64,000 nucleotides of DNA from Nitrospirota bacterium (GCA_963826885.1 CAWGYL010000002.1:129756-193755), one strand, 5' to 3'; positions 34,460 to 50,550 are shown, counted from the stretch's first letter. A program made the numbers and translations. The notes: a model not told the origin generated them from the letters alone.

Positions 34460-35425
34460 ATGATGAAAAGCTCACATAAATTGTGTTTAGTTGCATTGGT
34501 GTTCCTCGCCGCAATTTTACTGTCAGTCAATGCTTGGGCAGAGAAAAGAATCGGGGTTCTCATATTCAGTGACGAGACCCGCTATATAGAGGCGGCCAAG
34601 GGTATCAAGGATAAACTCTCCGAAGCTGGCTATACAGCATCGAATACGCATTATATTATCGAAAAGTCGGGCGCCAATAAGGCAAAGGCCGTAGAAATTG
34701 CGCAGAAATTCACTAGTGAAAAGTTAGATTTAATCATTGCCCTAGGCACGTCTTCCGCTGTGATCCTGGCCAAGGAAATCAAGGATGTGCCGATTGTCTT
34801 CAGTGTCGTATATAACCCCGTGGAAGCGGGAATAGCAAAGTCGTGGAAGAGTTCAGGCAATAACACAACGGGAACCACTACCGACATCCCCATGATGAAG
34901 ATTCTGGACAACCTGAAATTGCTGAGGCCGGTACGGAGACTTGCAGTGCTCTATACGGCGGGCGAGACGAACTCCGAGTCGTTGCTCAGGGACTTGCAAA
35001 ACATTCAAGCGAAAGCCGGGATTAGCATCATTCCGGTGCTTATCACCACCAAAGAAGACATCGACCAGCTGCTCCCGGAAGTACTGCGCACGGTAGACTC
35101 AATCTACATTTCCGGAAGCAATGTGGTGAACAGCCAGATCGTAACAATTGTGAACTTGACGACAAAGGCGAACGTAATTACCGTATCCCATCTTGAAGAC
35201 TTGATCGAGAAGGGAGTCTTGTTGGGCGTGTGCGCCGATCCTTACACCTCGGGACGGCTTGCCGGGGAGAAGGCGGTAAAGATCCTTCACGGAGCAAAAC
35301 CTTCTTCGCTTTCCATTGATGCCCCTACAAAATTTGATGTTATTATAAATATGAAAACGGCAAGGGAGGGAAAGTTCCCGCTCTCTTCTGAATTCATGAA
35401 AAGAGTGACAAAGAAGATCGAATAG
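34460..35425 (+). CDS. Periplasmic substrate-binding protein of the ABC_sub_bind (PF04392-like) family, probable sensor partner of the adjacent kinase
   Basis: Signal peptide. About 300 aa with RIGVL...IALGTSSA...YNPVEAG, a pattern characteristic of this family. A hybrid histidine kinase lies 40 bp downstream. RBS aaaggaggg. Confidence 0.6.
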   Translation: MMKSSHKLCLVALVFLAAILLSVNAWAEKRIGVLIFSDETRYIEAAKGIKDKLSEAGYTASNTHYIIEKSGANKAKAVEIAQKFTSEKLDLIIALGTSSAVILAKEIKDVPIVFSVVYNPVEAGIAKSWKSSGNNTTGTTTDIPMMKILDNLKLLRPVRRLAVLYTAGETNSESLLRDLQNIQAKAGISIIPVLITTKEDIDQLLPEVLRTVDSIYISGSNVVNSQIVTIVNLTTKANVITVSHLEDLIEKGVLLGVCADPYTSGRLAGEKAVKILHGAKPSSLSIDAPTKFDVIINMKTAREGKFPLSSEFMKRVTKKIE

Positions 35426-35466
35426 CAGCGCGGAAATTCGGCCGAGACCGGAAAGAATGGTGTCCC

Positions 35467-47702: not shown

Positions 47703-47913
47703 CACCTACAAGTCTGCGTAATCAATTTTGTGACAAGGGTCAAGAATACCACATGAAACATACTTCATCGCACGATATCTCATTGTTCTTCTCGATGGGT
47801 TGGTTAATATCATTGTATCGTGTTGCGTCCTCCTTATTCCAACATTTGTATCTTATAGCTGCTCACCATGCTCTCTTGCGTTACGCGTATGTGAAGCTTC
47901 ATGGAGCAACCCG

Positions 47914-50550
47914 CTATTGATTAAGCACTTTTCTGATCATCAGCAATAAAGCCCGGGGAGAGGACGGTTTCGAGAGAAAATGCAGCCCTTTCTCGAGTTC
48001 ACTCTCTTTCTGGATCAGATCAGCCGGATAACCGCTCGTAAAGATAACCTTTGTGTTCGGATTACTTCGTCTGATTTCCTCGAAAACCTCCCTACCGTTC
48101 TTATTCGGCATGATGACGTCCAAGATTAACAGGCTGATCCGGTCTTGGTTTTCTCGGAACTTCTGCAGTGTTTCCTCCCCATCAGCAGCCTCGATAACGT
48201 TGTATCTGAACTCCTGCAATAAATCTTTGTTCAACCGCCTAACAAATTCATTGTCCTCAGCGAGCAGGATGGTCTCAGTTCCTCCCAAAAGCGGTTGCTG
48301 GACCTCGGGAGACCGGTCTTCTTCAGTTTGTGCACTGGCGAACGGGAGGTATATCTTGAACGTGGTGCCCTTTCCGAGCTCGCTATACACGTTGATATAA
48401 CCGTTATTCTGTTTTACGATGCCGTATACAATAGCAAGCCCGAGTCCTGTCCCTCTACCAAGTTCCTTTGTCGTGAAGAAAGGATCAAACATTTTCTTCT
48501 GCGTATGCTCATCCATGCCCTCCCCGGTGTCGCTCACTGTTAGAACAGCATAGTGGCCAGGTGACCCAAATCCTTGCGATTTGGCATATTCGTCATCGAG
48601 CATAACCAGTCCTGTTTCGATCATTAGCCTTCCGCCCTTCGGCATTGCATCACGTGCGTTGGCAGCAAGGTTCATTAGCACCTGTTCGATCTGCACAGGA
48701 TCAACGAAGATCGTTAGCGTCTCATCACTTAACGATGTCGACATAACAATATCTTCGCCGATAATTCGGCTAAGAAACTTTTCGACATTGTGAATACTAT
48801 CGTTGAGATCAATGTTTCTGGGGCTGATGACCTGCTTTCTGCTGAATGCAAGAAGACTCTGTGTAAGACTCGCTGCCCGCTCCGCCGCCGCAAGAATCTG
48901 GCTCAAATATTCCTTCATGGGATCATCGGTACACATTTTCATCTGAATGATATTGCCATATCCGACGATTGCCGCAAGAATGTTATTAAAGTCGTGGGCG
49001 ATGCCGCCGGCGAGCTGGCCGATGGATTCCATTTTTTGAACCTGTAATAGCTGAGCTTGTAGCTTTTGCTTCTCTTCCTCCATCTTCTTGCGTTCGGTGA
49101 TGTCCCGTACGACTGCAAGCACGCGTCCCGCTCCTCTGATTCGCGTTACCGATAGCACCACTTCGGTCCAGAAAAGTTCTCCATTTTTCCTTCTGGCCAG
49201 CCATTCAAAATGCTGAGGCCCTTCCTTGAAGGTCTTGCGTATCAATGCAACTGCTTCCCGCAATGAGTAGGGAGACTCGCCCGAGCTAAAATCCTGTACT
49301 GTCCGATGTAGGATCTCATCACGGGAATAACCGTACAATTCTTCCACAGTTTTGTTGATCTCGATGATGTTTCCCGAGTCGGCGTCGTGTACGAATATGG
49401 CGTCTGTGGTTGTGTTGAAAATATCCCTGTAATTACGCTCACTTTCGACAAGCGCTTGTTCCCGCAGCAAAAGCTGGCCTGCCATCGAATCGAACGTCTG
49501 ACCCAGCCTGCCTAATTCGCCGCCGGCGACAACGTCGGAAACCCTAACGTGAAGATCACCCCCTGCGAGATTTCTCGATGCGTTTTCCAATAAAGTGACT
49601 CGGTCCGCAATCGAGCGTTTACCGACAAACCAGGCGAAAAAGACTGCAAACGCGAGAAATGAGGTAAAGAGCGCCAGGTTCCGGATGAGCATCTTGTTCG
49701 CATCTGCCAGGACGACTGTGATGGGGATCCCTGCACGTATATAAATATACGGCGACTCCTCGCCGGGCAGTCGTAGTTTGCGATAGGTCAGGATGCGGTC
49801 GTCACCGCTGATCGTTGTGATGTTGGAATAGGTATAGACGTCAGGGCCGTCTTGCATTTGTTTGAATAATACAGAATCGTATTGTTTTCCAATATATCCC
49901 TCAGGACTGATGGCCCGGTATATTACGGTGCCTTTGTGGTCCAGCAAGATAAAACTAGTGCCGGTCGGTAGTTTGGCACGTAGCACCTGTTTGTCTGCAT
50001 CGAGAACGAACCCGACGCAGATAACGCCGATTATGACGCCCCGTTCATTTCTCAGGGGGGCGGCAATATTGAAGACAGGTCTTGACGTTGCCCTGCTGAT
50101 GGCATATTCGCCTGACGAAAGCTGCTCGCTTGCAAGGGCATTTTGAAAGTAACGTCGGTCGGATACATTTTGATGCAGAAGGTGCGGAACGGCGGTGGCC
50201 CAAACGAGACCGGAACGATCGATGATGAAGATGTTCGAATACTGGGGATTTAATTTGAGGATATCGCGCAGGACCGGTTGCACCTTGGTGGCATTTTGTC
50301 TCTTGACATCAGGTAGCTGTGCCAGAGCGGTAATCAATTGCTGCGCAGCGGCTATGAGATTTTGCTGTTCGGCAGCGATATTTTCCGCAAGTCGTTGTGT
50401 CTCCATACGAGCGTCACGGATTGCTCCTTCTCTCATCTGGATGCCGGAATACATGATAATGCCTGCAGCCGGAATGGCAACGATGAAGGCGAGAAGGAGT
50501 ATCTGAACCCTGATAGGCATAGATATCAATCTGGTCATCATGTTTTTCAA
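47914..50550 (-). CDS. Hybrid sensor histidine kinase, paralog of 35467-38106 in inverted orientation
   Basis: Same architecture: periplasmic sensor between two TM segments, HAMP, PAS, HDFNNILAAIVGY H-box, DTGEGM...GTGLGLAIV, and a C-terminal receiver ...LAEDN...LILDVIMP. The shared blocks are about 60% identical to kinase 1. Confidence 0.85.
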   Translation of the reverse strand: MKNMMTRLISMPIRVQILLLAFIVAIPAAGIIMYSGIQMREGAIRDARMETQRLAENIAAEQQNLIAAAQQLITALAQLPDVKRQNATKVQPVLRDILKLNPQYSNIFIIDRSGLVWATAVPHLLHQNVSDRRYFQNALASEQLSSGEYAISRATSRPVFNIAAPLRNERGVIIGVICVGFVLDADKQVLRAKLPTGTSFILLDHKGTVIYRAISPEGYIGKQYDSVLFKQMQDGPDVYTYSNITTISGDDRILTYRKLRLPGEESPYIYIRAGIPITVVLADANKMLIRNLALFTSFLAFAVFFAWFVGKRSIADRVTLLENASRNLAGGDLHVRVSDVVAGGELGRLGQTFDSMAGQLLLREQALVESERNYRDIFNTTTDAIFVHDADSGNIIEINKTVEELYGYSRDEILHRTVQDFSSGESPYSLREAVALIRKTFKEGPQHFEWLARRKNGELFWTEVVLSVTRIRGAGRVLAVVRDITERKKMEEEKQKLQAQLLQVQKMESIGQLAGGIAHDFNNILAAIVGYGNIIQMKMCTDDPMKEYLSQILAAAERAASLTQSLLAFSRKQVISPRNIDLNDSIHNVEKFLSRIIGEDIVMSTSLSDETLTIFVDPVQIEQVLMNLAANARDAMPKGGRLMIETGLVMLDDEYAKSQGFGSPGHYAVLTVSDTGEGMDEHTQKKMFDPFFTTKELGRGTGLGLAIVYGIVKQNNGYINVYSELGKGTTFKIYLPFASAQTEEDRSPEVQQPLLGGTETILLAEDNEFVRRLNKDLLQEFRYNVIEAADGEETLQKFRENQDRISLLILDVIMPNKNGREVFEEIRRSNPNTKVIFTSGYPADLIQKESELEKGLHFLSKPSSPRALLLMIRKVLNQ

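Follow-up and report, generated by a model that had tools for sequence, protein, structure and literature searches.

Two direct repeats, almost identical to each other, bound a segment of about 9 kb between two hybrid histidine kinase genes (K1 and K2) in DNA from a Nitrospirota bacterium, in a stretch rich in insertion sequences. We asked whether this repeat, R, marks the attachment site of an inserted island or is a place at which the chromosome recombines. "The window" denotes the whole 64-kb stretch of DNA that was analysed, and all coordinates refer to it.

Repeat copies, kinases and segment contents

The features of the locus, in order along the window, are as follows.

34460-35425, plus strand: ABC-transporter substrate-binding protein gene, upstream of K1 (Pfam ABC_sub_bind, 1.3e-45)
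35467-38106, plus strand: K1, hybrid histidine kinase (HAMP, two PAS, HisKA, HATPase and receiver domains by Pfam)
38200-38233, plus strand: start of a dispersed intergenic repeat of the D3 family (core CTTGTAGGTGGATCTC), cut off at 38233 after 34 nt
38234-38300, plus strand: D2a, a 67-nt repeat adjoining R1
38300-38434, plus strand: R1, repeat copy 1, non-coding, 31% GC
38435-38506, plus strand: 72-bp spacer "s", its right ~30 nt being the left half of the insertion sequence (IS) target motif
38507-40948, plus strand: 2.44-kb IS with tyrosine recombinase and IS91-family Y2 transposase (Pfam/NCBIfam; ends set from copies elsewhere)
38651-39523, plus strand: tyrosine recombinase gene of the IS, missed in the earlier note on this DNA
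39526-40620, plus strand: IS91-family Y2 transposase gene
40949-41092, plus strand: IS target motif, right half, together with a dispersed intergenic repeat "E" (paralogue at 59087-59217; copies in contig L111)
41201-42280, minus strand: AI-2E family transporter gene, 359 aa (Pfam; exact protein on L029-L031)
42500-43480, minus strand: DUF2950 protein gene, 326 aa (Pfam, 1e-110; exact protein on L028)
43571-44632, minus strand: gene for a 353-aa protein with a hydrophobic N-terminus and Gly-rich C-terminus, no family match
about 45018-45055 and 45122-45170, minus strand: two tRNA-like 3' fragments (T-arm and acceptor; anticodon arm to acceptor)
45320-45386, plus strand: D2b, second D2 copy, 2181 bp left of R2
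45591-46331, minus strand: SEC-C / UPF0149 (YecA-like) protein gene
46362-46820, minus strand: gene for a 152-aa protein of no known function, with an ORF extendable to 164 aa (end at 46856)
47017-47522, minus strand: predicted ParE-type toxin (47017-47310) and Unstab_antitox antitoxin (47313-47522)
47568-47702, plus strand: R2, repeat copy 2
47703-47715, minus strand: D3 core (minus-strand sequence CTTGTAGGTG), running on directly from R2
47914-50550, minus strand: K2, hybrid histidine kinase carrying a dCache sensor (called start 50520, giving 868 aa)

R1 and R2 lie in the same orientation at a spacing of 9268 bp and are identical at 133 of 135 positions, the sole mismatch being a SNP pair (TA at 38395-6 in R1, AT at 47663-4 in R2). 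The distance from the K1 stop codon (38106) to the start of R1 is 194 bp, and that from the end of R2 to the K2 stop codon (47914) is 211 bp, in agreement with the earlier note, which had placed near-identical direct repeats about 200 bp past each kinase. R has sharp edges on the left and the right. Exactly two copies were counted in the window, with a chance expectation of 0, and no more copies of R or D2 were found in the ~1 Mb of related loci searched. No match to R was found among plasmids and phages. In an Rfam search of the entire window, with both R copies in it, no family reached its gathering score, and a permissive Rfam E-value scan covered 44700-47950, a range with R2 inside and R1 outside it. 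No fold signal, and no stable fold, was obtained for R (z = +0.7 and +1.2), and with no terminal inverted symmetry either, R was rejected as an integron attC site, which would be an imperfect palindrome with R''/R' core sites. Similarity between the 72-bp spacer and the flank of K2 was not significant (p about 0.05).

The kinases had been described as paralogs with a common architecture at about 60% identity. The alignment gave 50% identity over the C-terminal ~400 aa only, which is the transmitter half, and about 26% across a 213-residue stretch upstream of it, and the sensor domains differ (dCache is present in K2 and absent from K1). Because K1 and K2 are only distantly related, their position as "flanking paralogs" is incidental. 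The earlier view that the repeats did not come about through duplication of the kinase gene was judged right. The start of K1 was set at 35584 by gene callers (840 aa), and the exact K1 protein is present on L015-L017.

Pfam and NCBIfam bore out the gene content of the segment (IS91 transposase, AI-2E transporter, DUF2950 protein, 353-aa protein, SEC-C protein and ParE/antitoxin pair). The type II toxin-antitoxin prediction rests on PF05016 (6.8e-7), PF09720 (8.2e-16) and TIGR02574 (above cut-off). The pair formed by the 164-aa and SEC-C genes is kept in a relative, L112, where a MazE/PIN pair stands beside it instead of ParE. The tRNA fragments reported earlier are visible by eye as two pieces, but the covariance-model match is weak and ARAGORN found no intact tRNA. 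The GC content of the segment is 0.486 versus 0.491 for the window. Judged by gene content, the 9.1 kb between the R copies is shown to be a mosaic of mobile and conserved genes.

The insertion sequence beside R1

The transposase of the IS matched PF14319 (1.7e-28), PF04986 (5.3e-56) and NF033538 (transpos_IS91; 359.5 bits against a cut-off of 125), and is of the HUH Y2 type with an N-terminal zinc-binding domain (Zn_Tnp_IS91 and Y2_Tnp). Copies of the IS are 99.6-100% identical, their ends are constant across at least six left and ten right flanks, and the transposase is listed in 99 index blocks. In other contexts the copies occur without R, and R1 lies 72 bp outside the IS; because the IS copies elsewhere lack R, R is not part of the IS. 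As far as its copies indicate, the IS is a separate, independently mobile multicopy element.

The left end of the IS is GTTCAAGTAAGCC, and the right (oriIS) end consists of a hairpin, TTTTTGGTT, and then GTTG/GTTT with a conserved motif. The two ends are dissimilar, and on simple inspection the junctions that were read show no duplication of the target. IS91-family elements have dissimilar ends, make no target duplication and carry a CTTG/GTTC-type tetranucleotide beside oriIS (PMC13181058). The element thus resembles IS91, IS801, IS1294 and ISCR in its domains, its dissimilar ends, its right-end hairpin and the G/CTTG-type tetranucleotide alongside. It differs from the family in its target, since all insertions seen sit in one ~45-nt dispersed motif, beyond a mere tetranucleotide. 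Haur_5165/Haur_5164 of the Herpetosiphon aurantiacus plasmid pHAU01 likewise pair a tyrosine recombinase with the IS91-family transposase encoded just after it (38.5% aa identity), but the IS is just 35-38% identical to annotated plasmid copies.

The recombinase scored 171 bits against the integron-integrase model, below the cut-off of 265, and is always coupled to the IS91 transposase; its identification as IntI, an enzyme marked by a specific insertion, was rejected on both counts. A composite transposon or IS-bounded translocatable unit was also rejected, as the segment holds one IS copy and R is outside it.

Junctions at the two repeat copies

A dispersed repeat family, D3, has about ten copies in the 64 kb, in either orientation and usually between genes, and its members are mutually 63-88% identical. 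The family was defined in this analysis by the core CTTGTAGGTGRATCTC and the roughly 50 nt of related sequence that come after it. On the minus strand, R2 together with 13 nt of its right flank has this core and the related sequence after it, as a diverged D3 unit. The Smith-Waterman score of R2 and its flank against the D3 unit of L032 was 58, versus 35 ± 6 in shuffles, and p ≤ 0.01 was obtained for three of seven D3 units; over the distal two thirds of R, similarity to the D3 family was not significant. Because the D3 core runs on continuously from R2, the alignment shows the right junction of R2 to be native, with R2 in its original context.

Dispersed intergenic repeats of the REP/BIME or MITE-like kinds serve as IS targets, for example for IS110-family elements that insert there. 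An IS110-family element interrupts one D3 copy at a fixed position in the core, and in another D3 copy a deletion ends at that same position. D3 is like REP/BIME and MITE-like repeats in being multi-copy, intergenic, present in both orientations and split by IS110, with R2 as a diverged member. The R pair is unlike such families in its 98.5% identity, against 63-88% within D3, and in that R1 has no core.

The order at R1 is D3 stub, D2a, R1 and 72-bp spacer, a patchwork at a synteny break past K1, and R1 is an internally truncated secondary copy without the D3 core. The earlier note did not list D2. D2a and D2b are 84% identical over all 67 nt and 90% over the right 50 nt. D2 and R are contiguous at copy 1 and 2181 bp apart at copy 2, an arrangement that is unexplained by plain homologous recombination.

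In L032, the closest relative on the K1 side (96-98% nt identity), collinearity with the window ends at 38233|38234, 66 bp left of R1, so that the break coincides with the left edge of D2a and not with R. The D3 unit at the break is intact in L032 and is followed by Na/Ca exchanger and EutBC genes, which are unrelated to the window and occur nowhere in it. The K2 homologue in L111 (89% nt identity) shares only the stretch 50600-47836 with the window, and its neighbours differ on either side. No empty site with K1 and K2 on either side of a single R was found among the contigs reached, including 0 of 4 K1 contigs; the search, proposed earlier, for relatives with one R and no segment therefore came back negative.

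The order K1, D2a, R1, 72-bp spacer and IS is reproduced in L001 (by its contig name, probably a long-read assembly), L015, L016 and L122, and the order toxin-antitoxin pair, R2 and K2 in L007/L116, L117, L011, L013 and L014. Mis-joins can make repeats, and the second R copy could in principle be an assembly artefact of the window. The chance of this is negligible: both contexts occur in at least nine independent contigs from several samples and assemblers, L001 among them, which refutes it. In L001, from another strain, the DNA right of the IS differs while the left side, from K1 through D2a and R1 to the 72-bp spacer, is unchanged. Recombination between IS copies would also have reshuffled the DNA right of the IS.

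IS91-family elements often miss terIS and take along the neighbouring DNA that precedes the transposase gene (PMC13181058). A one-ended (read-through) rolling-circle transposition could accordingly have delivered R, the 72 bp and the IS (38300-40948) as one unit, from a donor in which the toxin-antitoxin pair was followed by R, the 72 bp and the IS. R and the 72 bp are on the co-mobilised (terIS) side, the R-72bp-IS block stands behind two distinct left flanks, and the target tetranucleotide GTTG is at the right end. We nevertheless consider this origin very unlikely. The halves of the target motif flank the IS, as a simple insertion predicts, and D2a has no significant resemblance to the left half of that motif. 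The end of the D3 stub at K1 and the continuation in L032 are both unlike the DNA after the IS. The native join of R2 to the K2 flank at the last base of R, seen in the window and five contigs, is also left unexplained.

The hybrid junction and the role of R

R occurs with D2a-K1 or the toxin-antitoxin pair on its left and with 72bp-IS or K2 on its right, and three of the four possible combinations were seen. The third is a hybrid that joins the R2 flank on the left to the R1 flank on the right (toxin-antitoxin, R, 72 bp, IS), found in L009 (Logan, SRR34864993) and L118 (JGI 3300009839). These contigs come from two other peat metagenomes and are 100% identical to the window, except that the R2-type SNP pair stands beside the 72 bp. 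The hybrid form accounts for 2 of 7 resolved contigs from 7 samples, and in eight other contigs the SNP allele is always matched to its flanks. In both hybrids the exchange falls within the last 38 nt of R, for which a uniform crossover gives about 28% per event, and a site-specific exchange near the right end of R is therefore possible. The idea in the earlier note that the repeats can serve as recombination sites gains support from this junction, while inversion of the segment, also suggested there, is ruled out by the direct orientation of the repeats.

The 38 nt that follow the SNP pair are identical in both copies, and the hybrid contigs could be graph chimeras formed across them. This applies above all to L009 (k=31), which ends at non-repeat positions, suggesting low coverage. 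Short-read contigs that span this IS are inconsistent in their flank pairing (L006 versus L119, L002 versus L123). Such chimeras would suit an explanation in which the two copies are old paralogous intergenic sequences, their central 135 bp recently homogenised by gene conversion with no exchange of flanks. Identity climbs toward R, from about half in the D3 part (by eye) through 84-90% in D2 to 98.5% in R, and a conversion tract would end at the limits of homology, set on the left by the 2181-bp block of copy 2 and on the right by flanks that are unrelated. On the other hand, the same hybrid appears in two samples and two pipelines (Logan and JGI), the eight contigs keep each SNP allele with its own flanks, and an earlier event that made these edges is still required. 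We regard this explanation as possible but rather unlikely.

A circular mobile element with a unit of 9,268 bp (72 bp, IS, AI-2E cluster, tRNA fragments, SEC-C pair, toxin-antitoxin pair and one R) offers another account of the hybrid, in which a Campbell-type single crossover of its own R with a chromosomal R between K1 and K2 produced R1 and R2 as attL and attR, and the hybrid contigs would represent the circle in its free state. Its direct repeats are sharp-edged, the toxin-antitoxin pair and tRNA-like fragments are inside, the right junction of R2 is of the chromosomal type, and the hybrid is the exact circle junction predicted, in two samples and with sequence identical to the window. In R1, R2 and the two hybrids alike, the exchange point falls beyond the SNP pair on its right, which also fits one fixed crossover region. 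For the check on a circular junction that had been proposed earlier, the hybrid contigs are candidates; they terminate at or within the IS, short of closing a circle, and may be chimeras. The empty site K1-D2a-R-K2 was absent from all four K1 contigs, and K1 is never beside K2 in relatives. The unit lacks genes for replication, for mobilisation and for an integrase of its own, and the recombinase belongs to a self-moving IS with other copies that lack R. GC content is the same as in the window, the SEC-C pair is chromosomal in relatives, and other DNA follows the same K1-R1-IS left side in L001. An integrated circle is on these grounds unlikely. Less probable again is a 9,268-bp circle that would shuttle between a free or tandem form and the chromosome via R without a classical replication or integration module, retained by the ParE pair and possibly using the Y2 transposase and recombinase of the IS for rolling-circle replication and multimer resolution.

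The same observations bear on the suggestion that the repeats are island boundaries. The locus is like att-bounded genomic islands and integrative elements in its direct repeats at both ends, its toxin-antitoxin pair, tRNA-like fragments and near-end recombinase, and its candidate circle junction. It is unlike them in that the sole recombinase (38651-39523) is owned by the IS and no integrase of its own lies near the putative att site, the tRNA fragments are internal, and neither an empty site among the contigs reached nor a composition signal was found. Synteny breakpoints lie beside R, and the contents are mosaic rather than distinct from the host. The island claim was therefore not upheld.

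We favour, at about even confidence, R as a low-copy repeat that acts as a homologous-recombination hinge in a mosaic plasticity zone, and not as an island attachment site. Direct repeats such as REP, IS and rrn sequences mediate RecA-dependent unequal crossover, with duplication, amplification and deletion of the segment between them. The R pair is comparable, as its copies, each longer than 100 bp and 98.5% identical, flank 9 kb, and the join-point diagnostic of a duplication or circle, with the left flank taken from the distal copy and the right flank from the proximal one, appears in two metagenomes. It is unlike the classic amplification repeats in being two-copy, not a high-copy REP or IS. 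If general (RecA-type) homologous recombination uses the R copies as a hinge, the hybrid form would be one of three things: the 9,268-bp unit duplicated head to tail, the same unit as a circle, or, in some strains, a third order of the chromosome. Circular or tandemly duplicated forms of this unit are possible. The identity of R, 98.5% against 84% in the adjoining D2, would reflect recent copying or gene conversion. Alternative gene orders that arise through such a hinge would represent ordinary genome plasticity.

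Two copies of R and their sequence neighbours

The direct repeat described in the earlier note as 134 bp was borne out as 135 bp of non-coding sequence (R), present in two copies that are identical but for two neighbouring bases, TA at 38395-6 and AT at 47663-4. The copies lie in direct orientation with 9268 bp spacing, and a 57-nt R probe found exactly two in the 64-kb window, where chance would give none. The positions of the copies and of the hybrid histidine kinase genes outside them are as follows.

35467-38106, plus strand: kinase gene K1, whose stop is 194 bp from the start of R1
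38300-38434: R1
47568-47702: R2, whose end is 211 bp from the stop of K2 on the other strand
47914-50550, minus strand: kinase gene K2

Both contexts were recovered in independent assemblies, which represent several peat or soil metagenomes. The order K1, D2a (a second repeat), R1, a 72-bp spacer (38435-38506) and an insertion sequence (IS) was found in L001, L015, L016 and L122, and the order antitoxin, R2, K2 in L007/L116, L117, L011, L013 and L014. Because both contexts recur in this way, the window assembly is not at fault, and misassembly, which these contigs contradict, is excluded as a source of the repeat. Exact 34-mer and 28-mer searches with R gave 0 matches in metagenome_contigs, genome_contigs and viral_contigs, from which R-bearing contigs are evidently absent, so that copy number is not informed by them. 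BLAST of 38200-38506 against plasmid and phage collections gave no match.

The GC content of R is 31%. It folds no better than shuffled sequence, no Rfam family reached the gathering score anywhere in the window, and a permissive E-value scan, which covered R2 and not R1, gave nothing at R; a structured RNA or known RNA family was ruled out by the lack of fold signal and of an Rfam match. A promoter was ruled out since no sigma-70-like site occurs within R; an extended -10 (TGATATAAT) is present outside R, within the 39 bp that separate R2 from the antitoxin gene. An attC site was also rejected. R1 contains a 31-codon ORF, read directly from the sequence, that the SNP pair breaks in R2.

Taken together and read on the minus strand, R2 and the adjoining 13 nt start with CTTGTAGGTGAATCTC, the core of D3, a dispersed intergenic repeat family with about 10 copies in the window. 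The alignment with D3 crosses the junction of R2 and its flank, and the similarity of R2 plus flank was significant against shuffles for 3 of 7 family members; the core is absent from R1. Since the similarity spans this junction and R1 is without the core, the R2-K2 junction is native and R1 is a truncated copy. A D3 unit in the opposite orientation also follows K1; its first 34 nt are present, up to 38233, where it is truncated. The distal part of R had no significant similarity to the D3 family in either context.

The D3 core (TTGTAGGTG / AGGTGRAKC) was located at 1279, 3821, 26994, 33897, 38205, 47703, 51720, 53008, 60777 and 63588, with copies on both strands and often shortly past gene ends, including those of both kinase genes. 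One core is split by an IS110-family element (CATACTTGTAG IS AGGTGAAGG) at ~53017-54430 on the minus strand (transposase gene 53318-54388). The window also lacks 2.7 kb that are present in L032, a contig from a relative (between 33896 and 33897 versus L032 5600-8312); this deletion ends at the identical position in a different D3 unit, so that the IS110-family element may take the D3 core as its recombination target. Other structures in the window were group II intron RNA domains at 2988-3276 on the minus strand (RF02001, 147 bits; RF01998, 67 bits), a 120-nt unit repeated three times in tandem at 24479-24838 (83% and 73% identical to the first), and a 220-nt inverted repeat (640-859 / 57292-57511) that is 79% complementary with arms 56 kb apart.

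The repeat D2 had been missed by the earlier reader. D2a (38234-38300) abuts R1 on the left, and D2b (45320-45386), 84% identical to it, lies 2181 bp left of R2; the SEC-C, 152/164-aa, ParE and antitoxin genes stand between D2b and R2. A 355-aa start variant had no exact-protein match on record. The homology of D2 to the left half of the IS target motif was not significant. Of the tRNA fragments proposed for the segment, two different tRNA-like 3' fragments (45018-45055 and 45122-45170, minus strand; one ending in CCA) were seen, with no tRNA gene called by ARAGORN and no intact one anywhere in the window; they may be remnants of old integration sites. The contig L008 breaks at 45006, just beside them.

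As for the proposed kinase paralogy, K1 and K2 are related over their C-terminal ~400 residues (50% identical), with about 26% identity over a 213-residue stretch upstream and unlike sensors, dCache being found in K2 only. They are ordinary members of a large kinase family. The K2 sensor half (50550-49076) has 91% DNA identity to a portion of one gene of a Nitrospirota MAG (L018 3941-5415). Nothing in that locus matches the transmitter half as DNA; the tblastn hit reports query residues 1-862 as matched. This contrast may reflect domain shuffling of kinase genes, or only divergence past DNA-level detection. Being related in the sensor half only, this relative of K2 from the GTDB genomes was useless for flank comparison.

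The insertion sequence beside R1

The IS91-family element that had been reported between the repeats carries a Y2 transposase gene (39526-40620), together with an overlooked partner, a tyrosine recombinase gene (38651-39523). We take this pairing to be one described in ISfinder; its other basis is the annotation of Herpetosiphon plasmid pHAU01, which has the same integrase-transposase gene pair, and no paper directly on IS91 members with a tyrosine recombinase was found in the literature. The exact transposase was present in 99 contig-index blocks, mostly contigs of 2-5 kb. Comparison with copies elsewhere set the extent of the IS at ~38507-40948, which leaves a gap of 72 bp between the IS and R1, and R is absent from the vicinity of every other copy. 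R as an IS component was ruled out by the ends mapped in this way, and the comparison of copies shows that R is independent of the IS. One-ended IS91 transposition could have moved R plus the 72 bp, which lie on the fitting side; it fails on the native K2 flank, which follows directly from the last base of R2, and we regard it as very improbable.

Every IS insertion seen falls in one dispersed ~45-nt motif, ..TAGATGCTnTTGAATTCAG ^ GTTGAAAnTT...AATGGAAACT (variant print ..GAATTCAG^GTTGAAAnTT..AATGGAAACT), which was present in six distinct left and ten distinct right flanks (loci L001-L006, L119-L123). Uninterrupted motifs occur at 59040-59105, 44800-44845, 33985-34041 (minus strand), 60864-60914 (minus strand) and 56538-56624. 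The right (oriIS) end of the IS adjoins a G/CTTG-type tetranucleotide, a trait of the IS91 family (PMC13181058). Whereas tetranucleotide specificity is described for that family, this IS is far more specific. In L122, which matches 38265-41331 at 99.67% (10 mismatches in 3067 nt), several mismatches, judged by eye from a flank print-out, fall within ~30 nt after the right end of the IS (40949-40980); the visible allele difference there may stem from a chimeric contig or from conversion by a further copy of the motif.

Synteny in strains and relatives

On its left side L001 has K1, D2a, R1, the 72 bp and the IS as in the window; the DNA right of the IS differs and is therefore strain-variable. 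Where the window (from 40979) has the AI-2E cluster, L001 (9617-19258) has transposase genes of IS256-like and IS4-like type and then PqiA/MlaD genes, which suggests a rearrangement mediated by IS copies. Recombination between IS copies may also have brought R1 and R2 within 9.3 kb. SNP distribution in the comparison with L001, which might have revealed whether an R-IS block had moved recently, was uninformative.

Three relatives were compared. L032, a JGI contig of 33.8 kb, matches the window at 96-98% identity. The two are collinear over 28334-38233, up to precisely the left edge of D2a; at 38233 L032 has an intact D3 unit, followed by Na/Ca exchanger and EutB/EutC genes, which are nowhere in the window. 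L111 has a K2 homologue (89% nucleotide identity) and shares only 50600-47836, with other neighbours on both sides. In L112 the SEC-C protein is 76% identical and the 156aa-SEC-C pair is kept (nucleotide homology 46808-45479), preceded by a MazE/PIN pair, not ParE, and followed by other genes up to recQ. The MazE/PIN pair (L112 397-1024) and the ParE and antitoxin genes (47017-47522), next to the same gene pair, represent a toxin-antitoxin swap at one locus. A dispersed intergenic element, E (40989-41092 and 59116-59217; 80-91% identity between copies), occurs three times in the 22-kb L111 (984-1144, 12881-12926 and 17071-17124), with one copy ~230 bp after the K2 homologue.

No contig found joined K1 to K2 through a single R, the empty site expected of an insertion, and at 0.486 the segment has the same GC content as the window (0.491). 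Because of these results and the three comparisons, the segment, taken together, is a mosaic with breakpoints beside R and not one foreign block bounded by R, and the suggestion that the repeats bound an inserted island is not supported. An integrated circular element with R as attL/attR would be consistent with the edges of R, which are sharp on both sides, and with the hybrid junction described below. It would have to do without an empty site, an integrase or replication genes of its own, a compositional signal, or any relative with K1 beside K2, and we think it improbable.

A hybrid junction and proposed recombination at R

Look-ups of the ParE toxin and then of the antitoxin gene, which is 39 bp from R2, gave nine contigs with a readable R neighbourhood. 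Five show the window's order, with R leading into the K2 flank, and two break off within R. In the other two, R with the R2-type AT allele is followed by the 72 bp and IS that follow R1.

L009 (Logan, SRR34864993): 45292-47702 joined to 38435-38539
L118 (JGI 3300009839): 47112-47702 joined to 38435-40947

Allele aside, both are 100% identical to the window, and by its sequence their junction matches that expected from recombination between R1 and R2. The IS-AI-2E junction and the AI-2E-SEC-C stretch are contiguous in other contigs (L029, L030, L008); given this contiguity, the hybrid junction would mean a 9,268-bp circle or a head-to-tail duplication. Both hybrid contigs end at or inside the IS, short of circle closure. 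If the strain were arranged like L001, this junction would instead reflect another rearrangement of the chromosome.

Just 38 identical nt separate the SNP pair from the right end of R, and short-read contigs around the IS demonstrably mix flanks (L006 versus L119, L002 versus L123). In our estimate the hybrid is slightly more likely than not to be a real molecule. Its reciprocal deletion product was not seen, which is weak evidence since the look-up required a complete, identical K1 on the same contig. If the hybrid contigs were chimeric, gene conversion alone could account for R, and this agrees with the identity gradient, in which R is 98.5% identical next to D2 at 84%; it must dismiss one hybrid obtained from two pipelines and two samples, and we hold it to be unlikely.

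The reading we adopt, at about an even chance, is that R is a low-copy dispersed repeat that acts as a hinge for homologous recombination in an IS-rich plasticity zone. R occurs with two left and two right flanks, and 3 of the 4 combinations were observed. Where synteny breaks, that the segment is a mosaic and that hybrid contigs exist are direct observations. Exchange of flanks at R would be of RecA type, the hybrid would have arisen by duplication or excision, and the identity gradient would stem from recent copying or conversion. This reading does not account for how R1 arose: D2 adjoins R at one site, and 2181 bp separate the two at the other. The homology between the 72 bp and the K2 flank was not significant.

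The earlier observation was real and its interpretation mostly too strong. What we see is an ordinary form of plasticity mediated by a repeat, and it may have yielded a duplication or excision product. If the hybrid junction is real, uncultured Nitrospirota from peat would offer a natural case in which a short non-coding repeat causes a 9-kb block, with genes for a transporter, secreted proteins and a toxin-antitoxin pair, to be duplicated, excised or rearranged from strain to strain. Such a case would help to understand strain heterogeneity and assembly breaks in these genomes, by a mechanism that is itself familiar. For mobile elements, the motif-specific IS91/tyrosine-recombinase element and the coincidence of IS110 with D3 are possibly of greater interest than R.
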